A DNA stretch of 64,000 nt from an uncultured Bacilli bacterium (GCA_947629165.1 CANRCR010000002.1:4845-68844); one strand, 5' to 3'; numbered from the stretch's first letter, positions 27,192 to 60,122 are shown. The notes: a model not told the origin generated them from the letters alone. Translations and numbers: made by a program.

Positions 27192-28007
27192 ATGGCCTCT
27201 TTTGTAATCCATCACATCGTAGGAGAAAATTTCCTAACATTATTAGATAAAAAATTAGAAATTACTTTAAATCCTATCGAACAAAAACAATTTTTATTAG
27301 GAAACCTAGTGGTTGATTCAACACGTATCTCAAAAGAAATACCAGATAATTTAGATTCCTTTGAAAAACAACAATTAAAAAGAAAAATTGCTTTGGCAAT
27401 TCAAGAAGAAAAAATAAAGACACACTTTCGGAATCCGAACACGGTAGATCAAACGATTCAAGCACCGATTCCAAATCGATTTATTCATAAGTACTACGAT
27501 CTTTTTGATCATAATCCTGCAGTACTAGGATATCTCGTTCATCTTTATACCGATAAATACTTTTTTGATGATCTTTTTAGAGCGACCTTTGAAATGGTCG
27601 ATCGGAATAATAACCCAGTAATATACGATCGGGAGGTCGATCACATTCATATATATAAAACCGGTGAAAATCAGTCACCAAAAAAGTTTTGGAGTGACCG
27701 AGGGATGTATCGGGATTATACCCTTATGAATCATTATTTACTTGACTGCTTCCATACGAAGTTTGATGAGCAAGATCTAATGAAAGCAACTACTTACTTT
27801 CATAATCCTGGAATCGAAGAAGTAGATTTTGAAAACATTGGCCAAGTACTTCATGAAACTGCTTCCTATATACAAGAAAGCAATCAAATGAAAGATGCCA
27901 AACTCCGTATCTTTGATGAAGAAAAGATTCGATCTTTCGTTCCGACCGTATTAAGTCAATTTGTAGATTTATATCCAGATTTAATAGAGAAGACCTTAAT
28001 AAGATAA
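27192..28007 (+). CDS. Hypothetical His-rich protein, possible metal-dependent hydrolase.
   Basis: N-terminus MASFVIHHIVGE; several HxxH/D motifs; 271 aa. Confidence 0.4.
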   Translation: MASFVIHHIVGENFLTLLDKKLEITLNPIEQKQFLLGNLVVDSTRISKEIPDNLDSFEKQQLKRKIALAIQEEKIKTHFRNPNTVDQTIQAPIPNRFIHKYYDLFDHNPAVLGYLVHLYTDKYFFDDLFRATFEMVDRNNNPVIYDREVDHIHIYKTGENQSPKKFWSDRGMYRDYTLMNHYLLDCFHTKFDEQDLMKATTYFHNPGIEEVDFENIGQVLHETASYIQESNQMKDAKLRIFDEEKIRSFVPTVLSQFVDLYPDLIEKTLIR

Positions 28008-28019
28008 GGTCTTTTTTTT
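27991..28019 (+). terminator. Intrinsic terminator.
   Basis: AGACCTTA ATAAGA TAAGGTCT followed by TTTTTTTT. Confidence 0.7.
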
Positions 28020-28065
28020 AAAATAATTGACAAAAAAAGAGATTATTATAAAATAATAAAATATC

Positions 28066-28094
28066 TTGACAAGAGAAGACTTATAGTATAAAAT
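28066..28094 (+). promoter_or_regulatory. Sigma-A-type promoter of the ATPase operon.
   Basis: TTGACA (28066-28071), 17 nt spacer, TAAAAT (28089-28094), about 40 nt upstream of the ATG at 28135. Confidence 0.55.
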
Positions 28095-28134
28095 ACTATT
28101 TGTTTGGTAAGAGCATAGAAAGAAGGGAACGGTC

Positions 28135-29922
28135 ATGAATAATACCATCGTTCGAGATTTCTTCAAAAATGCGATTGAAGAATGTAAAAAGAGTGTTATT
28201 TGTAAAATTCCTTACTCGAAGACGAATCCCATTATTGAAATTCAAGAAGAAGCTTTTTATGATTGGGAAAGTTGTGAATATGTAGTAATTCCTCCAACCG
28301 TACATAAAATTGCTCCGAATGCTTTTCATTGGGACAAGATAAAACTTATTATTTCGGAAACACCACTTCCAAAAGAATATAAAGGAATCGTGCTTCCTTA
28401 TTCCGAATACAGTCAAGCAATTTTAAATATGTTACAACAAATGGAAACAGTAGATCGTAAGATCGACATCCATAGTGAAGATTTAAATCGAAGAAGAGAA
28501 GAGATAAATAATCATATTAATGAAATACTTCAAGCCATGGCCGAAAAAGAACAAGACCTAACTGGAAAAGAACAAGATTTACAAGAATTAGTTCAAAAAT
28601 TAAATGTGGTTCTAGAACAGAGTCAAGGACTTTCGGATACGTTATTAAATCAAATTGAAAAAGAGACGAGTGATCGAATTCAAACAACTTTAAAAGTATT
28701 AGATGAGCACGATCAAAAAGTAAAGGATCAAATAAAAACCATCGAAATGACTGCTCGTCAAGGAACTGCTTCGATGGAAGAAGCTTATCACCAAGCCCAA
28801 AAAGGAATTGAACACTTAACGGATGAGACCATTCGCCGGGTTACCAAAACAATACAAGAAAAACAACGCGAAGCCAAAGAGATAAAACAAAAACTTTCCG
28901 ATATGCTCGATCAATTAAGTGTCCGTGAAGAGGAACTTACCGAAGCCGTTGTCGATCGTGCTGTAGACCGAGTTCGGGAAGAAAATCCTTATAAAAATAT
29001 CAATATATATATCAATAACGTTATTCAAGGAACGGCCCATCGTAAACTAGTTCATAAAAGTTTCGAAAGCGTTGTAAAAATTTTGGGACTTCATCTTCAT
29101 CCTTTGTTAGTAGGACCCGCTGGATGTGGTAAAAACGTTATGCTCGAACAAGCTTCGGAAGCTTTAGGACTCAAGTTCCATTACGTAAACGACGTTACCG
29201 AAGAACATAAGGTAATGGGTTTCGTAGATGCAAATGGAAAATTTCAGAAAACACAGTTCTTTCAAGCTTTCACCGAAGGTGGACTCATGATGATTGATGA
29301 AATTGATAACTCGCATCCTTCGGCATTATTAGCTATAAATGCAGCTTTAGGAACCGGTTTCAACCAATATTTAGCATTCCCGGATGGTAAACTTTATCCA
29401 TGTCATAAAGACTTCTATTGTGCGGCTGCTGCAAACACGTACGGAACGGGATCCGATATGATTTACTGTGGAAGAAGTGCTTTGGATGGAGCAAGTCTTA
29501 ACCGGTTCGTTCCTATTTTTATCGACTACGACAGAGACTTAGAAGAACACCTCGTTCGTAATACCAAGATTTTACCCCTTTACTGGCAAGTAAGATCATC
29601 GATTCAAAAAAATAAGATTCGACACGTTATTTCTACTCGTAACATCGTTAATGCTGACAAAATGATATCGAGTGATAATTTTAGTACGGGCCAAATCTTT
29701 GATATGACAATTATTCAAAGTTTAACAGACGACGATTTAAGAATCATCTTAAATGATATTGTAAAAGGACCAAGTGACCCTGTTATATCGAGTTTTATCA
29801 ACTATCTTCAAACGAACAAAGGAATTTCTTATAAGGAGTATAGCGAAAATAATTACAGTCAAGGAAGACAAAAAACATATTCTTCTGGCTATGGTTACTC
29901 TCCTTATTCGGAAGATTATTAG
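28135..29922 (+). CDS. AAA_5-family ATPase with N-terminal BspA-type LRR unit and ~200-aa coiled coil.
   Basis: Walker A LVGPAGCGKN; Walker B LMMIDEID; sensor-2-like RSALDGASLNRF. N-terminus IEIQEEAFYDWESCEYVVIPPTVHKIAPNAFH matches the LRR_5 repeat consensus. Residues ~95-290 are heptad-rich. Confidence 0.8.
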   Translation: MNNTIVRDFFKNAIEECKKSVICKIPYSKTNPIIEIQEEAFYDWESCEYVVIPPTVHKIAPNAFHWDKIKLIISETPLPKEYKGIVLPYSEYSQAILNMLQQMETVDRKIDIHSEDLNRRREEINNHINEILQAMAEKEQDLTGKEQDLQELVQKLNVVLEQSQGLSDTLLNQIEKETSDRIQTTLKVLDEHDQKVKDQIKTIEMTARQGTASMEEAYHQAQKGIEHLTDETIRRVTKTIQEKQREAKEIKQKLSDMLDQLSVREEELTEAVVDRAVDRVREENPYKNINIYINNVIQGTAHRKLVHKSFESVVKILGLHLHPLLVGPAGCGKNVMLEQASEALGLKFHYVNDVTEEHKVMGFVDANGKFQKTQFFQAFTEGGLMMIDEIDNSHPSALLAINAALGTGFNQYLAFPDGKLYPCHKDFYCAAAANTYGTGSDMIYCGRSALDGASLNRFVPIFIDYDRDLEEHLVRNTKILPLYWQVRSSIQKNKIRHVISTRNIVNADKMISSDNFSTGQIFDMTIIQSLTDDDLRIILNDIVKGPSDPVISSFINYLQTNKGISYKEYSENNYSQGRQKTYSSGYGYSPYSEDY

Positions 29923-29930
29923 GTGATATC

Positions 29931-30830
29931 ATGTATCAAGATGTAGAAAGATATCGTTACAAGGACGACTTAGTTTATGTCAAAAAATTTCAAAATTTAG
30001 ACCAATTTTTAGTAGAAGTAAGAGATAATCGTAATCTAAATCCCATCTTTCAATCGGAACAAAGTACGAACGGAGATGCTTCTTTTACCGAAACAAAGAC
30101 GTACGAAGAAGCTTGGAACTTATGTCGTTTTACCATGAACCAAGGCTTTGACCGATTTTATCAAAAGTTTTGTTCCCTCAATTATAAGATGGATTATCAA
30201 GAGAAAAAAATCGATATATTTAATGTGACCGGGTATGTTCCAAATGTACCGCGTTACTTATTAGGAATTCCTACTTGTATGCATAGTTACCGATTAGAAA
30301 AGAAAGAGGAAACCGTCAGTATTTATATGAATATGGCCTATTCTTGCTATCAAAACAAAGAACAGATTGAAAATCGTGGTATCCTAGTACTCAATTTGAT
30401 CGAATATTTAGAGAAACAAGGATATCATGTCAATCTTTTCACTTACGACTTTGGTACCTGTGACAACGAAAAAATATTGATGATTGTTCCGCTTAAAACG
30501 AAAGATGAAAAGTTAAACATTAAAAAGACGTATTTTCCACTTGTACATCCATCGTTTTTACGAAGACTTCTATTTCGAGCTCAAGAAAAAATGCCGGTAC
30601 AAAGAAAAATGTGGGCATATGGATATGGATCTCCAGTAGAATATGAGGAAGCAGTCAAGTTCTTTGATCAATATCATCGTGAATTTGATAAAGAAAAAGT
30701 CATCTATATTTCGACCCCTAACGAAATGGGAATTAAAGGACAAAACCTCGAAGAAGATTTCGACCATTTCTTAGAAACGATTAATCGAAATTATCAAAGC
30801 CATGAAAAAGCAAAACAAAAAATTAAGTAA
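29931..30830 (+). CDS. Hypothetical protein, partner of the AAA_5 ATPase; paralog of 602..1555.
   Basis: Begins 9 nt after the ATPase stop; sequence blocks shared with the 602..1555 product. Confidence 0.55.
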   Translation: MYQDVERYRYKDDLVYVKKFQNLDQFLVEVRDNRNLNPIFQSEQSTNGDASFTETKTYEEAWNLCRFTMNQGFDRFYQKFCSLNYKMDYQEKKIDIFNVTGYVPNVPRYLLGIPTCMHSYRLEKKEETVSIYMNMAYSCYQNKEQIENRGILVLNLIEYLEKQGYHVNLFTYDFGTCDNEKILMIVPLKTKDEKLNIKKTYFPLVHPSFLRRLLFRAQEKMPVQRKMWAYGYGSPVEYEEAVKFFDQYHREFDKEKVIYISTPNEMGIKGQNLEEDFDHFLETINRNYQSHEKAKQKIK

Positions 30831-30846
30831 AAAAGGAGAAATTGAT

Positions 30847-31764
30847 ATGGAATCAGGAAATATTTGGGGTTCACTTGAAAATACTACCCCATCTGTAATG
30901 GTAGAAAATCGAAAAACACTTTCCGTTAATAACTTGCGCATCTATTTAGCGATGACTCCCACCCAAGAAATAAATAAAGATACATTCTTCGATTACTTTC
31001 GTGAAAATAGTCTAGAAAAGCCTTTAGAGGGAACCGAATACTATTTACCACACGCCCTCTTTCATTATCCGATCGAAGATGAAAAAATACTAGCCATAAT
31101 GGACTTCTTGTTTGAATATACTTCTCCCTATGTATTGACGGAAAAAACCGGAATGAACTATTTACAAAGTATTTTTACAAGACCGGAAGCGCTCGAGGAA
31201 GAAACGATTAAAACGATATTAAAACAAGCGAGCGAAGTAAAAGCAGACTTTAATCATCGCGATAACGAATGGAATACCGTCCTACACTGGGCACTAGTAG
31301 GAAATGGTTACAGTGATAGTATTGATAAATTGTATCCGTATTTTCCTAAAGATTTCTATGTCGCAACAGGACCTCATCAGAATGACTGTGCGATCAATTC
31401 GTTCAATCGGGAAGGAATTACCGTTTATGATTTAGCCAAAATTATTCTAGCTCGGGTAAGTATAACCTTCGAAAATCACGCCAATTTTGATTATTACAGC
31501 AAAGATTGGAGAAGAGTATACGAATCCTATACCGATGGTTATAAATGGGCAAGAGAACCGAATCGCCAAGGAAGATTATTAAATAGTTATTTTAGTCATA
31601 CGATCGGATATAGTCTACGGCATTTAGGAACCGATTCAATGATTTCATTTGACCGTTACCATAATAAAACATATGACATTTGTTTAAGTGATTTTGCACC
31701 CGTATTTCAAACGAGAAAATTAAAAAAGTTAGGTACTTATCACACGCCTGAAACAAAAGAATAG
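30847..31764 (+). CDS. Hypothetical protein, possibly ankyrin-repeat-like; third gene of the operon.
   Basis: ATG at 30847 preceded by RBS AAAAGGAGAA. Segment NTVLHWALVGNGYSDSIDKLY resembles an ANK repeat. Confidence 0.45.
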   Translation: MESGNIWGSLENTTPSVMVENRKTLSVNNLRIYLAMTPTQEINKDTFFDYFRENSLEKPLEGTEYYLPHALFHYPIEDEKILAIMDFLFEYTSPYVLTEKTGMNYLQSIFTRPEALEEETIKTILKQASEVKADFNHRDNEWNTVLHWALVGNGYSDSIDKLYPYFPKDFYVATGPHQNDCAINSFNREGITVYDLAKIILARVSITFENHANFDYYSKDWRRVYESYTDGYKWAREPNRQGRLLNSYFSHTIGYSLRHLGTDSMISFDRYHNKTYDICLSDFAPVFQTRKLKKLGTYHTPETKE

Positions 31765-31825: not shown

Positions 31826-31891
31826 TTCGACAGAACTTGACAAAACTAGCTAATATCCGCTGTTTCTTTTTGTATTTATTTCGTGTATAAT
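31826..31891 (+). promoter_or_regulatory. spo0A upstream region: candidate 0A box plus promoter elements.
   Basis: TTCGACA at 31826-31832 (reverse complement TGTCGAA, the Spo0A box consensus); TTGACA at 31837-31842; extended -10 TGTATAAT ending at 31891. Confidence 0.4.
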
Positions 31892-31924
31892 GATAATTGC
31901 GTGGTAGTAAGAAAGGAAGAATAT

Positions 31925-32704
31925 ATGAATAAAATAAGACTACTCATGATTGATGATAACGTCGAACTTGTAAAGATGACGGAGGAGTACTTTAAGAATC
32001 ACGCTACAATTGAAATTGCTTTATCGGCAAACAATGGCGAAGATGGACTTAAAATGATCGAAGAAAAACAAGCGGAATACGATGTGCTAGTACTCGACTT
32101 AGTAATGCCCAAAAAAGATGGAATTTCCGTATTAGAAGAAATGCGAAGAAAAGGAATTGATAAGAAAACAATTGTCTTAACCTCGTACAATGCTCCTGAA
32201 ATGATCCGTAAGGTTTCGGAATTAGGAGCCAGTTACTTTATCTTAAAACCATTTGAATTAACGGAATTTGAAAGTAAAATAATCGATTGCACCAGTGCCA
32301 AAGACTATAAACGAAAAGCAATTGATATCTATCATAACAATCTGCAAATATCGATTACGAAAATTCTCCATGAATTAGGAGTACCTTCGCATATTAAAGG
32401 ATATCAGTATATCAGGGAAGGAATCATCATCCTCTACGAACACCCAGAGATTGTAGGCGGTATTACCAAAGAACTATATCCCGATATTGCGAAAAAGTTT
32501 GATACGACCGTATCCCGTGTAGAAAGAGCAATTCGTCATGCCATCGAAGTGAGTTGGAATCGCGGTAATTGGCAATTGATGGAAGAAATCTTTGGTCACA
32601 GTGTCGATATTGATAAAGCCAAACCAACCAATTCAGAATTCGTAGTTACCGTAGCAGATAAATTAAGATTGGAATTTCATAAACAGGGCGCATTTCAAGA
32701 CTAG
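31925..32704 (+). CDS. spo0A: Sporulation master regulator Spo0A.
   Basis: Receiver domain (LLMIDDN ... [10 protein letters not shown] ... K) and Spo0A-specific C-terminal domain ([32 protein letters not shown]). ATG at 31925 with RBS AGAAAGGAAG. Confidence 0.9.
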
Positions 32705-33194: not shown

Positions 33195-34469
33195 ATGGAA
33201 CGAAAAATAATGAATGACTTACTTCGCTGGAAACGAGATGATAACCGTCGCCCATTACTCCTTTATGGAAATAAACAAGTAGGGAAAACCTATACGGTGC
33301 TTGAGTTTGGAGCGAAGGAATATAAATCTTGTGCTTACTTTAACTGTGAAAATAATTTAGAGCTACTAGAAATGCTCAAAAAAGAAAGTAGTATCGATAA
33401 AATAATTTTAAAACTATCAATGCTATCGGGAGAACAGATATTAAAACAAGATAGTCTTTTAGTGTTCGATAACGTCGAAGATATCGAAGTAGTTCGCATG
33501 GTAAAGAGAATCGGTAAAGAACAAAATGCCTATCATGTAATTATGATTACGTCTTCCAAAGATAATCTCAACCAGTTCAAGTCGGAAGAACTTCAATTTA
33601 AATACATGTTTGCCCTCGATTTTGAAGAATACTTAAAAGCCATTAAACAGGAGCAACTCATCGATTTTATTAAAGATTCTTACAAAAATAATAAACCGAT
33701 GCCATTCCATAATATAGCGCTCGATTATTATGAGAACTATATGATGACGGGAGGTTTTCCTGAAGCCGTGGCCACTTCACTTACGAGTGATCAACCACAA
33801 GCTTTAGCTATGGTTCACCAAAAGATTCTAGATTTATACCCAAAAGAGTTTATGCGCCAAGAACAACTAATCGATATGACCAGAGCGTTAGAAGTATTTC
33901 GAATAGTACCTTATCAACTAGTGAAACCCAATAAAAAATTTCAATACGGATTAATGCGTATGGGAAGTCGTGCCAAAGAATACTTTCAAGCCATTGACTT
34001 TTTAAGTAATAATAGTTACCTAAATCGTTGTTATAAGATTACGGAAGTAAAAGCGCCATTGAGTAAAAATAAAGATCCTGAGAGTTTTAAACTCTATGCA
34101 CCGGATACGGGACTTCTTTTTCACATGTTACATTTAAGTAAAATTCGTTACCTTGGAGATAATCGCTTTAAATATATTATCTATGAAAACGCACTTGCGA
34201 GCAGTATTTTAGCGGGAGGCTACAGCTTATATTATTATCAATCGGAAGGGAAAGCCGAAATTTCCTTTGTAGTACAAACTCGTGCTGGAAAAATTATTCC
34301 GATCGAGCTAGTTAATAAAAATGTTGCAAAGGCAAAATCACTAACCTTATTTATGAATAAATTCGATATTCACGAAGCAATTCGTGTTACCGAAGATAAT
34401 TTTAGTATGAAAAAAGGAGTAAAATATATTCCAATTTATGCAACGTTCTGTTTAAAAGACAATTTGTAG
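33195..34469 (+). CDS. AAA_14/DUF4143-family ATPase (COG1373-like).
   Basis: Walker A LLLYGNKQVGKTY near N-terminus; ~420 aa with a C-terminal DUF4143-like region. Confidence 0.65.
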   Translation: MERKIMNDLLRWKRDDNRRPLLLYGNKQVGKTYTVLEFGAKEYKSCAYFNCENNLELLEMLKKESSIDKIILKLSMLSGEQILKQDSLLVFDNVEDIEVVRMVKRIGKEQNAYHVIMITSSKDNLNQFKSEELQFKYMFALDFEEYLKAIKQEQLIDFIKDSYKNNKPMPFHNIALDYYENYMMTGGFPEAVATSLTSDQPQALAMVHQKILDLYPKEFMRQEQLIDMTRALEVFRIVPYQLVKPNKKFQYGLMRMGSRAKEYFQAIDFLSNNSYLNRCYKITEVKAPLSKNKDPESFKLYAPDTGLLFHMLHLSKIRYLGDNRFKYIIYENALASSILAGGYSLYYYQSEGKAEISFVVQTRAGKIIPIELVNKNVAKAKSLTLFMNKFDIHEAIRVTEDNFSMKKGVKYIPIYATFCLKDNL

Positions 34470-51353: not shown

Positions 51354-52304
51354 ATGTTACAATTTGAAAAACCAGTCTATAAAATTACAGATTATGTAGA
51401 AAATAATTTTTTTGGAAAGTTTGAATTAGAACCATTAGAGCGCGGATTCGGAACCACTTTAGGAAATGCACTACGAAGAGTTATGTTATCATCACTTCCA
51501 GGAAGTGCAATTAGTAGTGTTAAAATTGAAGGTGTTTCACACGAATTCCAAACAATTGATGGAGTTATCGAAGACGTTGCACTTATCGTATTAAATTTAA
51601 AAGGAATTGTAATTAAGAATCATTCGAACGAACCAAAGACGATTCGTTTGAACGCTTCAGAAGAAGGAGTCGTAACGGCAGGAATGATCGAACATGATGC
51701 CGATATTGAAATTATGAATCCGGATCAAGAAATTGCAACCTTAGCAAAAGGCGGAAAATTAGTTATGGAAATGACCGTAACTAATGGCCGTGGATACGTA
51801 AGAAGTGAAGAAAACAAAAAATTACTTGATAACAAAAAAATGGGAACGATTGCCATTGATTCCCTATACTCTCCTATCGAGCGTGTATCTTATGAAGTAG
51901 AACCTGCTCGTGTCGGACAAAATGAAAACTATGACCGTTTAATTTTAAATGTATGGACAAACGGTTCAATGAAACCAGAAGAAGCAGTAGCATTAGCTGC
52001 TCGTATCTTAATCGAACACTTTGAATTGTTGACCGACTTAAGTAAGATTGCAGATATGACAGGACTTATGATTGAAAAGACAGAAGATCCAAAAGTAAAA
52101 GCATTAGAGACTACAATCGAAGATTTAGACTTCTCAGTACGTGCTTACAACTGCTTAAAGAGAGCTGGAATTCATACCTTACAAGATTTAGTTAATAAAT
52201 CAGAAAACGATATGATGAAGATACGTAATCTAGGAAAGAAATCACTAAAAGAAGTATTAGACAAGATTCGTGAACTTGGACTAGCATTACGTGAAGATGA
52301 CTAG
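51354..52304 (+). CDS. rpoA: DNA-directed RNA polymerase alpha subunit.
   Basis: RpoA NTD/CTD sequence; 316 aa. Confidence 0.95.
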   Translation: MLQFEKPVYKITDYVENNFFGKFELEPLERGFGTTLGNALRRVMLSSLPGSAISSVKIEGVSHEFQTIDGVIEDVALIVLNLKGIVIKNHSNEPKTIRLNASEEGVVTAGMIEHDADIEIMNPDQEIATLAKGGKLVMEMTVTNGRGYVRSEENKKLLDNKKMGTIAIDSLYSPIERVSYEVEPARVGQNENYDRLILNVWTNGSMKPEEAVALAARILIEHFELLTDLSKIADMTGLMIEKTEDPKVKALETTIEDLDFSVRAYNCLKRAGIHTLQDLVNKSENDMMKIRNLGKKSLKEVLDKIRELGLALREDD

Positions 52305-52325
52305 AAGGAAGGAGAAGCGATTAAA

Positions 52326-52670
52326 ATGGCATATAGAAAATTAGGAAGAGTAAGTAAACACAGAAAATCTATGTTAGCCAACCTTACCATCGATCTTATT
52401 AAGAATGAAAAAATTGAAACGACAGAAACACGTGCAAAAGAAGTTCGCAAATGTTTAGATAAAATGGTTACTTATGGTAAAAAAGGTGATTTAGTATCAC
52501 GTCGTAAAGCAATTGCTTTCTTACATAATGATGCCGAAGTAGCAAAGAAAGTTTTTGAAGATTTAGCCGTTCGATATAAGGATCGTAAGGGTGGATATAC
52601 AAGAATTTTAAAGATGACGGAACGTCGTGGTGACGATGCATTAATGGTTATCTTAGAATTAGTAAAATAA
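52326..52670 (+). CDS. rplQ: 50S ribosomal protein L17.
   Basis: L17 sequence. Confidence 0.95.
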
Positions 52671-52703
52671 GGCCTAAAAAGGTCTTTTTTTTGTGCTGTT
52701 TTC

Positions 52704-52732
52704 TTGACGAGAAAAAATGAAGTATTTATAAT
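52704..52732 (+). promoter_or_regulatory. Consensus-like sigma-A promoter upstream of the six-paralog array.
   Basis: TTGACG (52704-09), 17 nt spacer, TATAAT (52727-32). Confidence 0.55.
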
Positions 52733-52771
52733 AGAGTGTTATCGAATTAGGCCGATAGAATGAGGTGGACG

Positions 52772-53647
52772 ATGACAAAAGTGGAATTGACTTTACTCGA
52801 TCGAAATCAATTAATGGGAAAAAGTTGTTTAAAAGTTATTAATTCCTATGGCAGAAAGGCATCCATTACTGATTTAGCGATTTTAATGGGTGGTTTTGTT
52901 TCTTGTGACGACTATACGAGAGAAGAAAAAGATCAATCGATGGCTTGTGGAAAATATTGGACACGTACGATTTCTCCGGAACAGAAAGTAACCTATATCG
53001 ATAGCAACAGTTTAGATTGGGAATCGGAGATGTACTATCGTAACCGGTCCATTCGTCCTATGATAGAAAAAATAGAGTGGACGAGTGCTTTAAAATCAAA
53101 AGTAAAAATCGATTCACTTGGAATTCCAGAAATAAATTTGGGAAGTTATCCGCAACAAATCGTCGATGATAAACAAAATACCGTTTTAGAGTTCCTTTAC
53201 CATGCCGGCTATTTGATGAAAACAAAAAAACATTACACTTTTGATGACATAGAACATCACCGGGATTTCGAAACCGGTTTTACCTCTGTTATCTATCCGA
53301 GTTACCAATTAGAAAACGATACCTTTATCCGTGTATTAGGACATCCCGATGCTGGGTTTTATCTATCGAATAGTAAATCGGTCGAAATAGGGAAACCGTA
53401 CTGGATAAAAATAAGCCCTGTCGCTTGGCTTGTAGACGAAACTACAGGTATATTAATTTCCAAACGAAATTTATTATCTGGAATTCATTTTGCTAAAAAG
53501 AATAGCCAAGTAAACACTTTCGAAGACAGTTTCTTAAAAGAATACCTAGATACCTATATGCAAAAAGAATTGCTAATAGAAATATCTCCGACCTCTATTT
53601 TGGAAGAAAATCCGAAATTAAAACAGTTTATTTATCGAAAATACTAA
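52772..53647 (+). CDS. Paralog 1 of a tandem six-member uncharacterised family.
   Basis: Shared family motifs LTLL, GIRP-like, WIKISPVAWLVD, SKRNLLSG, C-terminal KQFIYRK. Start could instead be 52760. Confidence 0.6.
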   Translation: MTKVELTLLDRNQLMGKSCLKVINSYGRKASITDLAILMGGFVSCDDYTREEKDQSMACGKYWTRTISPEQKVTYIDSNSLDWESEMYYRNRSIRPMIEKIEWTSALKSKVKIDSLGIPEINLGSYPQQIVDDKQNTVLEFLYHAGYLMKTKKHYTFDDIEHHRDFETGFTSVIYPSYQLENDTFIRVLGHPDAGFYLSNSKSVEIGKPYWIKISPVAWLVDETTGILISKRNLLSGIHFAKKNSQVNTFEDSFLKEYLDTYMQKELLIEISPTSILEENPKLKQFIYRKY

Positions 53648-53672
53648 AGAACAAATGAAAGGAAGTGCTCGT

Positions 53673-54548
53673 ATGAACAATATCACCTTAACCCTTTTAA
53701 CATTAAAACAAGCCGATCGAACGGATGGTCTTCAAGTACTTCGTAAAGCAGGACCTGCTTTTCATACCGATTTAAGTATTTTGAACAGTGTATATCGCGT
53801 AAGAGAAAACTATTATACCAATGCTTTTGAAGACGAGCCTTTTGACTATTTCAGTTCCTTTTTTACGAAAACAGAAGATGGTGATTTAGATGTCTATTGT
53901 TATGATGAGATACAATCAACGGCCGTTTATCGTTGGGCAACCGATCGTGGAATTCGTCCGGTAATTAATGATCCCAAACTCTACGATGCCCTTGTTCAAA
54001 AGAGAAAACCAGGACGAAATGGAACCTACGAAGTGGAATTTGGAGTTTATCCACAGTACTTTGCTTCCATCGAAACAGGTAATGAGCTAGAGATGCGATA
54101 TGAATGTAATGACTTAATTACGACTGATAAAAAATATACGATTATGCATCCAACAGGATCAGGAGAAATGCACCCAGTCGCTTTGGAAGAATATCCCGAA
54201 TACGAATACCAAAATGATTATTATATCCGGTACACCGCATTTGATGAAAGTGCTGTCTTTGCTAGCAATGGTCAAGCTGTTTTGAGAGATAATGATTATT
54301 GGATTAAAGTAAGTCCTGTGCTTTGGTTACTAGATGAAGAAACTAAATTACTTATTTCTAAACGTAGTTTAGTTTCGGGAGTTCGTTTTAATAGTAAACC
54401 ATATTCCGGTGATTTTGAAACTACGGAAGTCAAACAATTTATAGACACCTATCTTACTCCGAATCTTTTTGATAAATCTGAACCGAAAGATCGGGTACTA
54501 AAACAAAATGAATCGCTAAAACAGTTTATTTATCGTAAAAATATATAA
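53673..54548 (+). CDS. Paralog 2 of the six-member family.
   Basis: NITLTLL; GIRPVIND; YPQY; WIKVSPVLWLLDEETKLLISKRSL; NESLKQFIYRK. RBS AAAGGAAG precedes ATG 53673; 53655 also possible. Confidence 0.6.
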   Translation: MNNITLTLLTLKQADRTDGLQVLRKAGPAFHTDLSILNSVYRVRENYYTNAFEDEPFDYFSSFFTKTEDGDLDVYCYDEIQSTAVYRWATDRGIRPVINDPKLYDALVQKRKPGRNGTYEVEFGVYPQYFASIETGNELEMRYECNDLITTDKKYTIMHPTGSGEMHPVALEEYPEYEYQNDYYIRYTAFDESAVFASNGQAVLRDNDYWIKVSPVLWLLDEETKLLISKRSLVSGVRFNSKPYSGDFETTEVKQFIDTYLTPNLFDKSEPKDRVLKQNESLKQFIYRKNI

Positions 54549-54564
54549 AAATGAAGGAATACTT

Positions 54565-55464
54565 ATGGAACCAAATATAAAATTGATTTGCCTATCAAAA
54601 AGTCGATTATCGAGTTATCCCAACTCGTCCTTAATAAGAACAGGACGTTGTTTTAGTACGGATTTAAATGCTTTATTAGGAACGGTAAAAGCAAACGATA
54701 GCGAATCCTATCAAGACGAACCACTTCGTATGGTTGGAAGATATTGGCTTACGACGCCCGATGATGATAGTGATGTCTATACTTCGGCTGCTACAATTAG
54801 GGATAGTGAAGAATTTGCCCCTACCTATCGTTGGTCAAAAAAATCGGGTATACGTCCTGTTATCGATAATAAAGAAATTTATGATGAATTATTTTATCAA
54901 CGACAAAGTGGAAGAAATGGAACCTACGAAGTGGCCTATGGCACCTATCCACAGTATTGTGAAACTATTGAAAAAGAGAAAATACTCGAAGAAAAATATC
55001 ACGAAGGAAAACTCGAAATAACCGATAAAGTGTATACCTTTCAAAACACGAAATATCTAGGAGAAAACGATGATTTTGTCCCCCAAGCATATAAACAATA
55101 TTATTATCAAGGAAACTACTATATTCGGTTTGTTGCTCCCCAAAATTTAAACTTTTTGCTTTCAAATAAACAACCCATATACCAAGGTACACCCGTCTGG
55201 ATAAAAGTAAGTCCTGTTATGTGGTTCTTGGATGAAGAATTTGAGCGATTAGTATCCAAACGAATTTTAATAAGTGGTATTCAATTTAATCGTAATCCTT
55301 ATTTTGGAGATTTTGAAAAAACCATTTTATATAGATATATGAATATGATTTTAAATGCGGATCTCTTTGATAAAAGACTAAATCAAAAGAATAAAGTTAT
55401 TTCAGAAAATGAAAGTTTAAAAAAATTGATTTATCGTAAATTACCTTATAAGAAAGAGGATTGA
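54565..55464 (+). CDS. Paralog 3 of the six-member family.
   Basis: YWLTT; GIRPVIDN; YPQY; WIKVSPVMWFLDEE; SKRIL; NESLKKLIYRK. Confidence 0.6.
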   Translation: MEPNIKLICLSKSRLSSYPNSSLIRTGRCFSTDLNALLGTVKANDSESYQDEPLRMVGRYWLTTPDDDSDVYTSAATIRDSEEFAPTYRWSKKSGIRPVIDNKEIYDELFYQRQSGRNGTYEVAYGTYPQYCETIEKEKILEEKYHEGKLEITDKVYTFQNTKYLGENDDFVPQAYKQYYYQGNYYIRFVAPQNLNFLLSNKQPIYQGTPVWIKVSPVMWFLDEEFERLVSKRILISGIQFNRNPYFGDFEKTILYRYMNMILNADLFDKRLNQKNKVISENESLKKLIYRKLPYKKED

Positions 55465-55466
55465 GT

Positions 55467-56351
55467 ATGAGTGAAATCGATTTAACACTTTTATCTAAAA
55501 AGGAAGTATTTGGTCCCGGCGGTTTAGATATATTTAGAAAGCATTCAGCAAAAGCTTATCTTACTGATTTTGGATATGTTACAGGAGCCGAGAATACCCA
55601 TTACTATACGGAAGATGAAACCGTTTCCGAGATGGATGATCGACCCCTTCGAATTACGGCTGATTACTGGCTACGTTCTTCGAATCCTTACGGATATCCC
55701 CATTTTGTTTATCTTAATGGTAGCATCGACAGTATCTATGGCGGATTGTTAACTAAAGGAATTCGTCCGATAATTCAAAATCCTACCTGCTTTGATGAAT
55801 GGATGTCAAATCTTACTCCCGAGGAATTACAAAAAGGCGAATTTATTTACGGAACTTACCCACAATGGTTGGTTCCAACGGAAAAGGCCTGGTTGCTCGA
55901 AAGAAATTTTAACCGTGGACTTTTAGATAAAACAAGAAAGACTTATACCATCAACGGCTATAAAAAAGAACTATTTTACCCGTTATCGATAAATGAATAC
56001 AGTTTCGAAGAAGAAAAATATGTGCGGGTTGTTTGTGAACACTATTCACCTTATAACTTTTTGTGTGATTCCAATTATCAAATGATCGATCGAAACATTG
56101 CTTGGATAAAAGTAAGTCCTGTCTATTGGATGATTGATTTTCCAAGTAAAACCCTCGTATCGAAACGCGTTTTATTAGGAGGAATTCCTTTTTATAAAAC
56201 AAGTAAAAAAGAATTTGCGTCGTCCGAAATAAAAACGTTTTTAGATAGATACATGAGTGCTGACTTATTTGACCAAGCAAGATACTCGAAAGATGGAATC
56301 TTATCTCAAAATGAAACTTTAAAAAAGTTAATTTACCGAAAAAAACTTTAA
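55467..56351 (+). CDS. Paralog 4 of the six-member family.
   Basis: MSEIDLTLL; YWLRSS; GIRPIIQN; YPQW; WIKVSPVYWMID; SKRVLLGG; NETLKKLIYRK. Confidence 0.6.
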   Translation: MSEIDLTLLSKKEVFGPGGLDIFRKHSAKAYLTDFGYVTGAENTHYYTEDETVSEMDDRPLRITADYWLRSSNPYGYPHFVYLNGSIDSIYGGLLTKGIRPIIQNPTCFDEWMSNLTPEELQKGEFIYGTYPQWLVPTEKAWLLERNFNRGLLDKTRKTYTINGYKKELFYPLSINEYSFEEEKYVRVVCEHYSPYNFLCDSNYQMIDRNIAWIKVSPVYWMIDFPSKTLVSKRVLLGGIPFYKTSKKEFASSEIKTFLDRYMSADLFDQARYSKDGILSQNETLKKLIYRKKL

Positions 56352-56367
56352 GAAAGGAGCAATAAAT

Positions 56368-57249
56368 ATGGATGTGAATTTAGGCTTAATAACGACACGT
56401 TATATTAGACCTGGAAAAAATCAATTAGAAATCTTTTCCAAATATCATGCGGTATCTTCTGCAACCGATTTATATCTCCTTACCGGTGGTCATTATTATA
56501 AGACGGGTTCTAGGGATCCAGATAAAAGAATGTTAAGTGCTTATTGGTTAGCTAATTCCGATAGTGATGGCGATGTTTTAATTATGAAAAATGACACCCC
56601 AAATACGTTTGCAGCAATTCGAGGTGATGCTCGTGTTGGTATACGTCCTATGTTTCAAGCGGATAGCGAATTGATCGAAAGAATCCAACCGGAAGAACCG
56701 AATCAAGATGGAGTTTTCGAAGTGGAATTTGGAAATTATCCCCAATTTCTTGAAAATGCGTACACTTCGATAGAATTAGAAGATGCGTATAAGAAAGACG
56801 GATTATGTGACACCCAAAAAACGTATACTTTTAATCAAGAAAATATTTCGATAAGCCAAAAAGGAATAACTCCCTTTAGTCCTGCTGTATATCACGAATA
56901 CGAATATAATAATCAAAAATATATCCGGTTTATTTCCTACGGAAACAACGAAAGTAGAGAAAGTGTCTATGGTAGGTCCTTAGAACGAAAAATTTATTGG
57001 CTTAAAGTAAGCCCTGTTATTTGGTTAATGGATCCTTCTACACAAATACTCGTATCGAAAAGAACTTTACTTGCTGGAATGCGTTTTAATAGAAAGTATT
57101 ATCGCGGAGACTTTTTATCTACGGAAATAAAAGCATATTTAGATCAGTATATGACCAAAGACTTATTTACGACGGAGGATGTTCCTAAAAATCGTATTTT
57201 AAGTGAGAACGATATGCTTAAAAATTTTGTTTATCGAAAGAAAGTGTAA
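56368..57249 (+). CDS. Paralog 5 of the six-member family.
   Basis: YWLANS; GIRPMFQ; YPQF; WLKVSPVIWLMD; SKRTLLAG; NDMLKNFVYRK. Confidence 0.6.
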   Translation: MDVNLGLITTRYIRPGKNQLEIFSKYHAVSSATDLYLLTGGHYYKTGSRDPDKRMLSAYWLANSDSDGDVLIMKNDTPNTFAAIRGDARVGIRPMFQADSELIERIQPEEPNQDGVFEVEFGNYPQFLENAYTSIELEDAYKKDGLCDTQKTYTFNQENISISQKGITPFSPAVYHEYEYNNQKYIRFISYGNNESRESVYGRSLERKIYWLKVSPVIWLMDPSTQILVSKRTLLAGMRFNRKYYRGDFLSTEIKAYLDQYMTKDLFTTEDVPKNRILSENDMLKNFVYRKKV

Positions 57250-57262
57250 AAGAAGGAAAGAT

Positions 57263-58150
57263 ATGGAAGATATTGATTTAACTTTATTAGAAGGATGCCA
57301 TGTAAGAGAAGGTAAACGCAAATTAGATGTTTTAAGAAAATATGGTATTTCAGCCGTAAATACAGACTTTTGCTTTTTAACGGGCTCGATAACATATGCA
57401 GGAATGAAACCAGATGAACCGGATGGATTTGACAAGGTGGGAGCCTACTGGTTACGGACTTCCGATAGTTATGGCGATAGTTATTATGTCGAAAATGATC
57501 GTGTCGAAAATAATGCGTTTCATGGAGATCGTTCATTTGGAATACGTCCAATTATCAATAATCCTATGTTGTATGATCGCCTGGAAGAAGAAAAAGAACC
57601 CGATGTGAAAGGAACTTTTTCTGTTGCCTTTGGCGAATATCCTCAATTTGCCGTTTCTAAAGACATAGAAGAAAAACTTGAAAGCTGTTATCAAAAGAAT
57701 CAAATAAAAACTACCAAAAAAAATTATGTTTACGATATTGGGTATGATGACTTTGATCCTCATACCCTCGAAGAGTACTATTTTGAAGATGAAAAATACG
57801 TTCGTATGGTTCCAAGGTATAATCGTAACCAGTTTTATCTTTCAAACGGGGTAGCCATGGCGGAAAATCAAGTTTTTTGGATAAAAGTAAGTCCGGTTAT
57901 TTGGTTATTAGATGAGAAGAAAAAACTACTTGTTTCCAAACGTTGTTTAGTAGGAGGGATTGCTTTTAATAACACCTATTATTACGGTTGCTTTGCCAAG
58001 ACAAATATAAAAAAGTATATGGATACCTATTTAACACCGAATATTTTTGATTCAATCGATTTAAAGAAAGATCAAATCTTATCGGAAAACGAAGCCTTAA
58101 AAAGTTTTGTTTATCGAAAAAATTTATTTCAAACGAGTAAGAGAAGATGA
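57263..58150 (+). CDS. Paralog 6 of the six-member family.
   Basis: MEDIDLTLL; YWLRTS; GIRPIINN; YPQF; WIKVSPVIWLLD; SKRCLVGG; NEALKSFVYRK. ATG 57263 with RBS AAGAAGGAAAG; the longer ORF from 57203 overlaps paralog 5. Confidence 0.6.
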   Translation: MEDIDLTLLEGCHVREGKRKLDVLRKYGISAVNTDFCFLTGSITYAGMKPDEPDGFDKVGAYWLRTSDSYGDSYYVENDRVENNAFHGDRSFGIRPIINNPMLYDRLEEEKEPDVKGTFSVAFGEYPQFAVSKDIEEKLESCYQKNQIKTTKKNYVYDIGYDDFDPHTLEEYYFEDEKYVRMVPRYNRNQFYLSNGVAMAENQVFWIKVSPVIWLLDEKKKLLVSKRCLVGGIAFNNTYYYGCFAKTNIKKYMDTYLTPNIFDSIDLKKDQILSENEALKSFVYRKNLFQTSKRR

Positions 58151-58175
58151 ATTGAAGTCTTCTTCTTTTTTTGAT
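58143..58175 (+). terminator. Intrinsic terminator closing the paralog array.
   Basis: GAAGATGA ... TCTTCTTC imperfect stem followed by TTTTTTTT. Confidence 0.55.
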
Positions 58176-58202
58176 ATAATGAATACAAGGTAGGATGGTA
58201 GT

Positions 58203-59303
58203 ATGAGTAAAAAAGAAAAAAAAGTAGATAAAAATGAAACAAAAGTAGATAAAAAAGGCAAAAAAAAGAAGGTTAATATAGTTTTAATTGCCATTATCGT
58301 AGGAGCAGGATTATTAATTGGTGTAGGAGCTTGGTTCCTATTGGGAGGAAATAATAAAGAAGATTTAAAAGAGGAAACGCCGGCTGTTGAGCCAACCCCA
58401 ACGCCGACACCGACACCTACATTAAAAATTGTTGATGTGAATAGTAAGAGTAGACCTTATGCAGTAATGATTGATAATAACGTAGGAAATAGTAACCATG
58501 TAGGATTATTAGATGCTTATCTCACTTATGAAATTATCGTCGAAGGTGGACTTACCCGTATTATGGCCGTGTATAAAGATACCAATACCGAATTGATTGG
58601 ACCGATTCGTAGTTCGAGACATTATTTTCTCGATTATGCTTTAGAAAATGGCGCTATATACGGACACTTTGGATGGAGTAGTTTTGCCCGTAATGATATT
58701 AGTGCTTTAAAAGTAAACAATATTAATGGAATGTCTAACGGTGGAAATGCTTATTGGCGAGATAAATCGATTGCTTCTCCACATAACGTATTTACTTCGA
58801 TGGAAAGTTTAAAGACAAGAGCGAGCGAATTAGGTTATCCTTTGACGGGAGATCAAGGACTACTATTAAATTATAGTATCGAAAACCTCGATATAAATGA
58901 AAAAGAAAATGCGGTCCCAGCGAATCAAGTGCTCGTTCGTTACAGTGCTTCGCAAACGCGAGGATATACGTACGATTCCGAAAATAAAGTTTATTTAAGA
59001 AATATGAATGGAAGTGCCCATGTCGATAAATTGAGTGGGACCCAATTAAGTTATAAAAATATTATCATCGAACAAGTAGAAAACTACACGCTCGATAAAA
59101 AAGGACATCAAGATTTAAGAAATATCAAATCTGGAAAAGGTTATTTTCTAACCAATGGATATGCGGTTCCAATTACTTGGAGTAAGAGTGCTCGTAAAGA
59201 TAAGACCGTCTACACTTATGCCGATGGAAGTGAAATTACCGTAAACGATGGACGAACCTTTATTCAAATTGTTCCTACATCTTACAATGTTGCTATCGAA
59301 TAA
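58203..59303 (+). CDS. DUF3048 (YerB-like) protein with N-terminal TM anchor and PT-rich linker.
   Basis: TM segment IVLIAIIVGAGLLIGVGAWFLLG; (PT)n linker; motif RPYAVMIDNN typical of DUF3048. Confidence 0.65.
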   Translation: MSKKEKKVDKNETKVDKKGKKKKVNIVLIAIIVGAGLLIGVGAWFLLGGNNKEDLKEETPAVEPTPTPTPTPTLKIVDVNSKSRPYAVMIDNNVGNSNHVGLLDAYLTYEIIVEGGLTRIMAVYKDTNTELIGPIRSSRHYFLDYALENGAIYGHFGWSSFARNDISALKVNNINGMSNGGNAYWRDKSIASPHNVFTSMESLKTRASELGYPLTGDQGLLLNYSIENLDINEKENAVPANQVLVRYSASQTRGYTYDSENKVYLRNMNGSAHVDKLSGTQLSYKNIIIEQVENYTLDKKGHQDLRNIKSGKGYFLTNGYAVPITWSKSARKDKTVYTYADGSEITVNDGRTFIQIVPTSYNVAIE

Positions 59304-59366
59304 GGATAAGAAAAGGCTAGAAATAGTCTTTTTGTTTTGTTATACTATTAGTAGGGTGGTGGTAGT

Positions 59367-60122
59367 ATGAAAGTTTTAATCACCGGAGCATCGAGTGGAA
59401 TTGGAAGAGATATGGCCAAATATTTAAGTAGTCAAGGCCACGAACTATTTTTAGTTGCGCGTGATAAAGCGAAATTAGAAGAATTACAGCAATCACTTAA
59501 AACAAGGACGACCATTATTGTTATGGATCTAACCGTCACAAGTAATGTGAAATCACTTTATGTCGTATGTAAAAATGAAAATATTGACCTTTTAATTAAC
59601 AACGCTGGCTTTGGCTTATGCGGTAATTTTACGGAGACCGATAATAATCGTGAACTCGAAATGATTGATTTAAATATTCGGGCAGTACATCTCTTAACCA
59701 AACTATTCTTAAAAGATATGAAACGTCGAAACCAAGGCTATATTTTAAACGTAGCTTCTTCGGCTGCTTTCTATCCAGGACCATTAATGGCTACTTACTA
59801 TGCTACTAAGGCCTATGTATTAAGATTAACCCAAGCTATTTACTATGAATTAAAAAAAGAAAAATCGAAAGTAGTAGTATCTTGTCTTTGTCCAGGACCA
59901 GTCGATACCAACTTTAATAAAGTGGCTAACGTTCATTTTTCAGTAAAACCCATGAAAAGTGAAAAGGTAGCAAAATATGCGATTGATCAACTTTTAAACA
60001 AACATAAATTGGTAATTGTTCCTGGATTTAAAATGAAATGTGCGCATTTCTTTAGCCGTTTTGTAAGTGATAAGACATTAATGCGTTTTGCCTATCGAAT
60101 TCAAAAGAAAAAAATGGAATAA
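59367..60122 (+). CDS. Short-chain dehydrogenase/reductase (SDR) family oxidoreductase.
   Basis: TGASSGIG cofactor motif; catalytic YxxxK (YYATKAY). Confidence 0.85.
   Translation: MKVLITGASSGIGRDMAKYLSSQGHELFLVARDKAKLEELQQSLKTRTTIIVMDLTVTSNVKSLYVVCKNENIDLLINNAGFGLCGNFTETDNNRELEMIDLNIRAVHLLTKLFLKDMKRRNQGYILNVASSAAFYPGPLMATYYATKAYVLRLTQAIYYELKKEKSKVVVSCLCPGPVDTNFNKVANVHFSVKPMKSEKVAKYAIDQLLNKHKLVIVPGFKMKCAHFFSRFVSDKTLMRFAYRIQKKKME

Follow-up and report, generated by a model that had tools for sequence, protein, structure and literature searches.

DGR-diversified CLec sensors are known in MoxR-vWA conflict systems (PMC7159879; PMC10907252), and the NTP-dependent 'ternary' systems of this type, in which FGS/C-type-lectin domains serve as sensors (PMC7159879, Kaur et al. 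2020; PMC10907252, Dore et al. 2024), are among the closest known counterparts of an array of six paralogous genes found in a 64-kb stretch of DNA, here called the window. The relatives of these genes share the main ingredients of the MoxR-vWA systems. They encode an AAA+-like ATPase together with a VWA-like protein that carries a peptidase domain, a third, small protein and a module of lectin fold, and some of their loci also have a DGR; the targets are likewise predicted to be cytoplasmic. However, it is the ATPase and not the vWA protein that carries the lectin-like module in the relatives, their VWA protein belongs to the DUF2201 metallopeptidase type, and neither VMAP or iSTAND nor a listed effector domain was recognised. 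They occur in Bacillota-like MAGs from gut and rumen instead of cyanobacteria, Chromatiales or actinobacteria, and the window contains stand-alone modules with no other component of such a system.

The literature treats DUF6273 (PF19789) as a C-type-lectin-like domain that is targeted by DGRs (PMC10743442; bioRxiv 10.1101/2024.10.15.618418). It occurs in gut phage DGR targets (the 'tentaclins', Mtd-like proteins) and in the N-terminal domain of the IgA peptidase from Thomasclavelia ramosa. The family studied here shares with it the motifs LLS...E, YWLRS, G(I/V)RP, W.VL/LLxSK..L and YL..F and, in DGR-linked members, a variable region (VR) just before the (G)xRP motif. It differs in that its two halves are swapped and a conserved ~75-aa insertion follows YGxYPQ, in having neither signal peptide, Ig-like stalk nor phage context, and in that the VR of the permuted members lies near the N-terminus of the protein and not at the C-terminus. 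Canonical DGR proteins such as Bordetella phage Mtd and Treponema TvpA offer a further parallel, since there, too, a lectin-type fold that binds ligands accommodates very extensive variation at a defined loop, and the relatives show the same adenine-specific TR-to-VR differences. In contrast, the window has no RT, Avd or TR, and its diversity consists of six fixed paralogs under purifying selection. Tandem divergent paralogs without signal peptides, with multi-module and ankyrin associations, are also described for immunity families such as SUKH. The present family resembles such poly-immunity loci in these features, including the fusions, and in its rapid change of copy number, but has no adjacent toxin or secretion genes and no sequence relationship to them. 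To our knowledge, neither fusion to an ATPase nor DGR targeting has been described for immunity proteins.

The six-gene array

Six consecutive open reading frames (52760-53647, 53655-54548, 54565-55464, 55461-56351, 56368-57249 and 57203-58150) lie on the plus strand 3′ of rplQ (52326-52670), the first opening 89 nt past the rplQ stop codon. Their coordinates and alignment bear out what a sequence-only reading of this DNA had proposed, six same-strand paralogs downstream of rplQ, and the motifs named there are all present and in register across the six copies. Starts backed by a Shine–Dalgarno sequence (52772, 53655 or 53673, 54565, 55467, 56368 and 57263 for copies 1 to 6) match the genes as called in a second strain (291, 297, 299, 294, 293 and 295 aa), so that product length varies only between 291 and 299 aa. 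Paralog 1 (52772-53647, 291 aa) begins with an ATG behind a GAGGTGG Shine–Dalgarno sequence, 12 nt into its open reading frame; it matches the family HMM with an E-value of 8e-123 and is the most divergent copy, its nearest relatives being found outside the array. Paralog 2 (53655-54548, 297 aa) has an alternative start at 53673 with an AGGAAG Shine–Dalgarno sequence. Paralogs 3 (54565-55464, 299 aa) and 5 (56368-57249, 293 aa) use the first codon of their open reading frames. Paralog 4 (55467-56351, 294 aa) has an ATG preceded by AAGAGG within a frame that opens with a TTG at 55461, and paralog 6 (57263-58150, 295 aa) an ATG preceded by AGAAGG within a frame that opens with a GTG at 57203, inside paralog 5.

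All six paralogs are intact in the second strain (L097), and dN/dS between the two strains ranges from 0.03 to 0.20 (0.15, 0.16, 0.03, 0.20, 0.09 and 0.18 for paralogs 1 to 6). The six genes are real, functional and under purifying selection. Pairwise identity is 29-40%, slightly higher than the 25-35% first estimated by eye. At the DNA level, repeats with a period of ~898 nt are just 60-80% identical and confined to the conserved blocks. The copies are therefore old duplicates without recent gene conversion, in agreement with the view that they did not arise by recent duplication. None of them has a transmembrane helix or a signal peptide, as had been noted before; the Kyte–Doolittle hydropathy does not exceed 1.02 in any 19-residue window.

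The ribosomal alpha operon ends in an intrinsic terminator directly after rplQ (52669-52694, plus strand), a hairpin AAGGCCU/AGGUCUU followed by a U-run that was called by the terminator scan (−10.1 kcal/mol, z −2.66). It is followed by a sigma-A-type promoter for the array (52704-52732, plus strand), where we found the predicted TTGACG-17 nt-TATAAT arrangement; with 11 of 12 consensus positions, it is the top site in the scanned region 52200-59500.

Family placement and fused relatives

In their native form, the six copies gave no significant match in Pfam, NCBIfam, PHROGs or PADLOC, as anticipated by the sequence-only reading, which could place them in no Pfam or DUF family. This holds for the native sequences but not after permutation of the two halves. 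The gathering cut-off of DUF6273 (profile length 172) is 23.5 bits, which none of the six copies reaches; copy 4 alone gives a match below it (16.1 bits, E 0.01), with residues 10-105 aligned to profile positions 87-168. The native-order family consensus does not match the model at all, while a permuted consensus, in which the C-half precedes the N-half and the insertion is left out, reaches 24.8 bits over positions 3-168 of 172. A permuted consensus built from the six window copies alone gave no DUF6273 match. Nature provides the same arrangement in the two-module protein P0009, where a match of 26.3 bits (profile 5-170) spans the junction of the modules at residues 214-375. P0176 scores 29.1 bits, and DUF6273 is matched by 4 of 77 family members. 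The full profile is matched solely when the halves are reordered or where two tandem modules meet, and the segments matched in native order are not colinear: the N-terminal ~100 residues correspond to profile positions 82-168 and the C-terminal ~65 residues to positions ~3-80. On these profile alignments, the family is a circular permutant of the C-type-lectin-like DUF6273. The predicted order of a module is LTLL...YWLRS...GIRP (DUF6273 ~82-168), then the ~75-aa insertion, and then WIKVSPVxWLLDE...SKRxL...YLDTY, the canonical N-terminal part. The insertion is conserved and beta-rich, with the motifs YGxYPQ, TxKxYT and EYxYxxxxYIR.

An AlphaFold2 model of paralog 6 (pLDDT 80, pTM 0.80) had the IgA peptidase named above as its closest structural match; Foldseek searches of PDB and BFVD returned nothing at E ≤ 0.001. 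Searches of PDB sequences with profiles A1 and A3 yielded low-information matches alone (a hemopexin-like Y.F.G.KY.R motif and eS31), which we discarded. The family is large: clustered at 50% identity, it has 2,122 clusters that pass E ≤ 1e-3 and 699 that pass E ≤ 1e-30, and gut and rumen metagenomes are their main source. A phage origin was considered and rejected, with no relatives in an IMG/VR scan and no phage genes near the array.

The relatives' neighbourhoods, an inspection of which had been suggested for toxin, defence and phage genes, had no toxin gene next to the related arrays examined; they did reveal a DGR and an operon of an AAA+-like ATPase and DUF2201. In these gut and rumen Bacillota-like genomes, the module is the N-terminal domain of a protein of ~630 aa, the C-terminal half of which is an AAA+-like ATPase. 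This half stays below threshold in Pfam (19.9 and 16.5 bits, cut-off 22) and was labelled from its Walker A, Walker B and NRF motifs together with an hhalign E-value of 0.007. About 46 of 97 loci have a three-gene operon in which the module-ATPase gene is followed by genes for a 130-aa protein without Pfam or PADLOC match and for a metallopeptidase/VWA-like DUF2201_N/DUF2201 protein. PADLOC recognised none of the three proteins, and the reverse transcriptase of the relatives matched only generic RT models. One locus (L105) was considered as a case of a stand-alone module working with a separate ATPase and was rejected, since its break interrupts the ATPase domain (HMM positions 68/69) and marks a frameshift in a fused gene.

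In 15 related loci, a reverse transcriptase (RVT_1, E 4e-20) is encoded upstream together with a bAvd-like open reading frame. Pairs of a template repeat (TR) and a VR were present in seven of the related loci, five of them distinct (L022, L032, L039/L042, L064/L065 and L094), and 84 of 105 mismatches were at TR adenines. The hypermutated loop lies between WW(T)xS and RPAL, and the VR, at codons ~68-109, maps by HMM alignment onto a variable segment of the window paralogs. In paralog 6, this segment comprises aa 67-93, between YWLRT and IRP (57461-57541, plus strand); its equivalents in paralogs 1 to 5, on the same strand, are at 52970-53050, 53874-53951, 54757-54849, 55680-55760 and 56557-56640. 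Mean pairwise identity in its 22-residue core (KVTYID...RNRS in copy 1, A1 columns 85-110) is 14.6% compared to 30% overall, the 8th lowest among 298 sliding windows; the segment is not unique in this respect, other loops of the paralogs being equally divergent.

All paralogs end in a tail with the motif (E/Q)NxxLKx(F/L)(I/V)YRK, located on the plus strand at 58085-58120 in paralog 6 and at 53606-53641, 54504-54539, 55405-55440, 56307-56342 and 57205-57240 in paralogs 1 to 5. Among the sequences examined, this motif is confined to the family, where it occurs in members from the window species, in those of the L011 array and in P0220. More generally, the C-terminal tails are conserved inside an array and different from array to array. 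Related arrays have 2, 3, 4 and 9-10 copies, and two loci whose ATPases are 90% identical (L014 and L028) have 10 and 6 family genes, respectively. Arrays are the rule in this family and their turnover is fast. Multi-module proteins and associations or fusions with ankyrin repeats also occur.

Possible functions of the array

The reading that we favour, and to which we give about an even chance of being right, is that the array constitutes a germline repertoire of cytoplasmic ligand-recognition modules belonging to a conflict system and built on the permuted DUF6273. The six genes would encode stand-alone modules, each a circularly permuted DUF6273 with the ~75-aa insertion, transcribed from a strong constitutive promoter beside the ribosomal alpha operon. 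They would represent six fixed specificities that differ most in the loop hypermutated in the relatives, the array being the germline counterpart of DGR hypermutation, and the common C-terminal tail may dock the modules onto a shared partner. The analysis itself shows the anatomy of the genes, the purifying selection, the permuted relationship to DUF6273, the fusions and operons of the relatives, and the TR/VR pairs with the position of the VR; we infer the binding function of the window copies, their conflict or anti-invader role and the docking via the tail, the defence role being read from architecture. Diversification of an anti-phage or conflict type had been one of the initial suggestions; it is the one best supported by the relatives. 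No known defence-system model in PADLOC was matched by the six copies. The family's most conserved residues sit in the insertion, to which this explanation gives no role.

The 64-kb window contains no homologue of the relatives' ATPase half (HMM search), of the 130-aa protein or of the DUF2201_N/DUF2201 VWA protein, and the partner of the window modules is hypothetical for this reason. Neither a reverse transcriptase (HMM built from the relatives' RTs) nor a TR-like repeat of the variable segment with TR-VR adenine differences is present in the window. The sole AAA_5 gene of the window, 23 kb away (28135-29922, 595 aa), was rejected as a partner, its product having only motif-level similarity to the fused ATPase half; nor does BLAST relate it to the AAA_5 gene that precedes the L014 and L028 arrays.

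A more far-reaching version, which we consider unlikely, is a gut Bacillota system in which the permuted lectin-fold module is used in two interchangeable modes, either DGR-hypermutated on an AAA+ ATPase with a VWA-metallopeptidase, or as germline paralogs that plug into a shared machine via their tails; a location behind the alpha operon, seen in three lineages, would secure constitutive expression. If true, bacteria would offer a parallel to the choice between receptors encoded in the germline and receptors diversified somatically. The family also allows hypermutation by a DGR to be compared with tandem paralog arrays as two natural routes to diversity in binding. A large family outside the curated models (~2,100 clusters at 50% identity) now has a predicted fold, a putative variable binding loop and a recurring set of operon partners, and these partners (the AAA+-like ATPase, the 130-aa protein and the DUF2201 VWA/metallopeptidase) are absent from defence catalogues such as PADLOC. 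Should the conflict role be confirmed, the MoxR-vWA/DGR sensor concept would reach beyond cyanobacteria and purple sulfur bacteria to Firmicutes dominant in the gut, and the modules would serve as compact scaffolds of ~290 aa in which the hypervariable loop has been mapped.

Classically, MoxR-VWA pairs work as chaperone and co-chaperone, and a CoxD-CoxE origin has been discussed (PMC7159879). The modules might act as substrate adaptors for, or regulators of, a chaperone ATPase of the MoxR/CobS type and its VWA partner, in everyday maturation of proteins or assembly of complexes instead of conflict, with different paralogs for different endogenous clients. The position of the arrays among housekeeping genes with no mobile-element genes nearby, the purifying selection on all copies and the stable copy number in two strains would fit such a role. 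However, hypermutation of the binding loop by a DGR in the relatives is hard to square with fixed endogenous clients, and copy number changes rapidly among close relatives in a family of patchy, lineage-specific distribution. We rate this alternative as rather improbable.

We attach a still lower probability to a poly-immunity locus in which each paralog would counter a different polymorphic toxin of competitors. Tandem divergent signal-less paralogs, multi-module fusions and the ankyrin-repeat association speak for it and an immunity repertoire had been among the early proposals, but no toxin, LXG/WXG, Rhs or secretion gene lies beside the window array or the related arrays examined, no toxin domains were detected in the arrays L011, L012, L014 and L001, and the AAA+-like ATPase fusion, the VWA/metallopeptidase operon and the DGR targeting are not features of immunity proteins. 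It is very unlikely that the proteins are enzymes or self-contained sensor-effectors with a catalytic, possibly nuclease-like insertion (YGEYPQ, TGKxYT, EYEYxGKKYIR) and a lectin-like part providing substrate specificity; the enzyme family previously envisaged found no counterpart in any enzyme fold or family match. Least probable of all are surface or spore-surface adhesins, reaching their place by non-classical export or by mother-cell deposition on the forespore, since for all that canonical DUF6273 is extracellular (IgA peptidase, phage receptor-binding proteins), that Spo0A is encoded and that related loci lie near sporulation genes, the paralogs have no signal peptide, transmembrane segment, anchor or cell-wall-binding domain, their promoter is sigma-A-like and not of the mother-cell type, the relatives are fused to a cytoplasmic-type ATPase, and the nearby sporulation genes occupy conserved chromosomal positions, not the same operons.

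Surroundings and 3′ end of the array

Family members adjoin rplQ in three lineages, while others adjoin lepA, prfB/tilS or tgt. A functional tie to translation genes was nevertheless rejected as not general, since the neighbours are unrelated at L103, at L104, at L106 and at most of the fused loci. In the window, the array is surrounded by rplQ and by genes for a DUF3048 protein, an SDR, a DUF212 protein and two ABC ATPases (probably ecfA). Neither rRNA nor tRNA genes nor Rfam matches are present in the window. The organism encodes Spo0A. As to the terminator proposed after the sixth copy, a hairpin with a U7 run does exist (58134-58173, plus strand), overlapping the stop codon of paralog 6, but it is A/U-rich and weak (−10.5 kcal/mol, z −1.14) and was not called by the terminator scan. 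This hairpin overlaps a promoter-like site for the next gene, that of the DUF3048 protein, at 58152-58180.

The six-gene array downstream of rplQ

The array comprises six + strand ORFs at 52760–58150, straight after rplQ (52326–52670), as the sequence-only reading had described. The copies can be aligned end to end with all the shared motifs named in that reading in register; their divergence is real, although the 25–35% identity estimated by eye becomes 29–40% when measured pairwise. The DNA repeats with a period of ~898 nt, but only the conserved blocks do so, at 60–80% identity, which argues that the six copies are old and have not been homogenised and bears out the earlier remark that they are not recent identical duplicates. 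Shine–Dalgarno-backed starts on the + strand at 52772, 53655 or 53673, 54565, 55467, 56368 and 57263 (copies 1 to 6) match the gene calls of 291, 297, 299, 294, 293 and 295 aa in L097, a second strain of the window species. Since all six genes are intact in both strains, with dN/dS values of 0.03–0.20 between them, they are functional genes under purifying selection. Two antisense ORFs, at 55951–56280 (− strand, 109 aa) within paralog 4 and at 57231–57551 (− strand, 106 aa) within paralogs 5/6, lie opposite genes under this selection.

The near-consensus sigma-A promoter noticed earlier (TTGACG-17-TATAAT, 52704–52732) is found between a convincing terminator after rplQ (z −2.7) and copy 1. The terminator proposed after the sixth copy fared less well: a hairpin is present 3′ of copy 6, but it is weak (z −1.1) and was missed by the terminator scan. 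No hydrophobic segment was detected in the six copies, in agreement with the reported lack of TM helices and signal peptides. Further 3′ are genes for a DUF3048 protein, an SDR, a DUF212 protein, a 221-aa ORF and two ABC ATPases, the latter probably ecfA/ecfA′ from their ABC_tran matches, which are the sole evidence. The organism has a GC content of 35% and encodes Spo0A. No tRNA gene or Rfam family reached threshold in window 1–64000, ribosomal-protein leader RNAs included, despite the presence there of the S10-spc-alpha block of ribosomal protein genes.

Relationship of the family to DUF6273

The earlier view that the family cannot be placed holds for the native sequences, which matched no curated family. 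Their only lead was a sub-threshold match of copy 4 (residues 10–105) to the C-terminal half of DUF6273 (Pfam PF19789, profile 87–168). DUF6273 was matched by 4 of 77 diverse family members. Where match coordinates are available, for copy 4 and the related protein P0176, the C-terminal half of the profile is covered by the N-terminal part of the protein. The family consensus in its native order gave no match to DUF6273 at E ≤ 1. When the C-terminal block (WVEVSPVKWL...YLDTYL..DL) was moved ahead of the N-terminal block and the insertion cut out, the permuted family consensus matched DUF6273 in one stretch (profile 3–168 of 172) with 24.8 bits, above the cut-off of 23.5, and to this extent the family is no longer unplaceable. 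P0009, a natural two-module protein, matches DUF6273 on residues 214–375 (profile 5–170, 26.3 bits), a region spanning the end of module 1 and the start of module 2. Judging from these profile matches, the family is a circularly permuted, insertion-bearing relative of DUF6273. The six window copies by themselves gave a permuted consensus with no match to DUF6273, and they are thus divergent members.

In two papers DUF6273 is characterised as C-type-lectin-like and as a target of diversity-generating retroelements (DGRs) in gut phages (PMC10743442; bioRxiv 10.1101/2024.10.15.618418). We consider it very probable that the six copies are lectin-like, DUF6273-related binding modules, as predicted here. 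The AlphaFold2 model of copy 6, one of the fold checks suggested earlier, is compact (pLDDT 80, pTM 0.80); Foldseek retrieved nothing significant. The family's most invariant residues are in the insertion that separates the two halves (YGEYPQ ... TGKxYT ... EYEYxGKKYIR), to which no relative could be assigned.

A word-indexed search recovered just 4 relatives; an exhaustive HMM search returned 2,122 clusters at E ≤ 1e-3, of which 699 also passed E ≤ 1e-30. Members fall into two main length groups, one of about 300 aa and one of 550–1,000 aa, the longer proteins having two or three modules or else C-terminal extensions (coiled coil, ankyrin, DUF4116). Sources that name these proteins call them 'hypothetical protein [Bacilli bacterium]'. 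The related loci stem from metagenomes and MAGs of human gut, rumen and rabbit origin, and a scan of 2.9 million viral contigs turned up no relative.

A module-fusion operon and a retroelement in related loci

In 97 related loci, ORFs were called, family members flagged by HMM and their neighbours clustered. About 46 of these loci have one operon in common, in which gene 1 (~630–660 aa) joins a family module to a C-terminal half, gene 2 (130 aa) has no Pfam match and gene 3 (480–570 aa) encodes DUF2201_N (putative metallopeptidase, E down to 7e-34) plus DUF2201 (VWA-like). The fused C-terminal half carries the motifs GPSSEGKS (Walker A), VFLDE (Walker B), IVAAGN and LFNRF, and aligns with a bona fide AAA_5 protein (hhalign E 0.007). 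We call it AAA+-like (AAA_5/MoxR-type), with the caveat that its matches to Pfam AAA_5 are sub-threshold (19.9 and 16.5 bits, cut-off 22). The 130-aa protein (L057 5752–6141; L018 5748–6146), also without a PADLOC match, has a Walker-B-like 'ILVIDNID' and an 'IVVTA' strand in its consensus without a P-loop, and resembles a degenerate fragment of an AAA+ core. At another locus (L105 6001–7892), what appeared to be separate module and ATPase genes is a fused gene with a frameshift inside its ATPase domain (HMM positions 68/69), which reflects a misassembly or a pseudogene.

Directly upstream of the operon, 15 loci carry a reverse transcriptase (RT) gene (RVT_1, E 4e-20), which in 7 of them is preceded by a further small ORF, one member of which gives a sub-threshold bAvd-like match. 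The template repeat (TR) sits between this small ORF and the RT, and the variable repeat (VR) is inside the module gene, at codons ~68–109, corresponding to the loop between WWT(K/R)(T/S) and (A/V)RPAL. TR/VR mismatches fall at TR adenines in 84 of 105 cases (e.g. 16/17, 12/13 and 11/13), and differences confined almost wholly to adenines in this way are the signature of a DGR. Complete cassettes with bAvd-like ORF, TR, RT and target are present at L022 5931–9926 and also in L032, L039/L042, L064/L065 and L094. Unusually, the VR there occupies the 5′-proximal part of the target gene, and this gene encodes a cytoplasmic fusion of module and ATPase, not a surface protein.

MoxR-vWA conflict systems carry DGR-diversified lectin-fold sensors, and the operon of the relatives, together with its DGR, resembles these systems in architecture but differs from them in domain arrangement and host range (PMC7159879; PMC10907252). 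As to the suggested check for defence genes among the neighbours, no non-RT component of the operon matched PADLOC. In the relatives, the hypervariable loop is a DGR target, and the module stands at the head of an AAA+-like ATPase working with the VWA/metallopeptidase protein. The 64-kb window encodes no RT and no homologue of the ATPase half, the 130-aa protein or the DUF2201 protein.

Stand-alone arrays and their genomic sites

Stand-alone modules of ~300 aa typically form tandem arrays. There are 2 copies after rplQ in L001/L002, 3 full-length copies and an 89-aa fragment in L012, 4 copies ahead of lepA in L011, and a stand-alone copy or copies adjoining the full operon in L018, L020, L021 and L057. 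L014 has 9 copies plus 1 ankyrin-fused and L028 has 5 plus 1 ankyrin-fused. In each case a gene pair precedes the array, one gene encoding an 868-aa protein and the other a separate AAA_5 ATPase. These ATPases are 90% identical while the family genes number 10 and 6, which points to fast array turnover. In the two closely related genomes (L014 1623–16680; L028 3–11592), the large protein of this pair is unannotated, and an ankyrin-repeat protein and the module-ankyrin fusion stand at the array end in L014 and ahead of the last module in L028.

Window copies 2–6 find their best matches in one another, indicating a lineage-specific expansion, and copy 1 is nearer to outside members. Among the six paralogs, the core equivalent to the VR has a mean pairwise identity of 14.6% against 30% overall (8th lowest of 298 sliding windows), with other loops being similarly variable. 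The C-terminal tail, (E/Q)NxxLKx(F/L)(I/V)YRK, is among their most conserved blocks. Each array has its own conserved tail, NDIDSIFEEAINRMNEIN in L014 and L028, and that of the window recurs in the L011 array and the related protein P0220 but nowhere else among the sequences compared. Loop divergence combined with array-specific tail conservation suggests a putative variable binding loop with a putative constant docking element. The role judged likeliest for the array is that of a germline-encoded set of recognition modules, acting in the cytoplasm as part of a MoxR-vWA-like conflict system, a prediction that we regard as evenly poised between right and wrong. Some weight is also given to the modules being endogenous chaperone adaptors, immunity proteins, enzymes or surface adhesins.

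Family members lie immediately 3′ of rplQ in three settings. The first is the window species (52326–52772 in the window; also L016 and L097). The second is L057 (3097–5644), whose RpoA is 70% identical to that of the window and in which the full operon and two further modules follow rplQ. The third is L001/L002 (L001 8160–9842), with 43% RpoA identity, two stand-alone copies and a genome that is presumably diderm because of its AsmA/Mla genes. The placements in the window and L057 could go back to one ancestral event; that in L001 is probably independent. Because most family members lie elsewhere, we read the rplQ site as one favoured for insertion or expression and not as a sign of ribosomal function, and the end of the alpha operon may be a hotspot of this kind.

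Elsewhere in the window, a four-gene cluster at 27192–31764, just upstream of spo0A (31883–32704), contains a 271-aa ORF, a 595-aa AAA_5 protein, a DUF7192 protein and a 320-aa ORF. The 595-aa protein combines a coiled-coil N-terminal half, with weak PADLOC LmuB/ZorA coiled-coil matches, and an AAA_5 domain. Similarity between the 595-aa protein and the ATPase half of fused family members is at the motif level only, and the cluster may be an unrelated ATPase-based system. A gene for an AAA_14/DUF4143 ATPase (33195–34469) lies between spo0A and the phosphoglycerate mutase gene.
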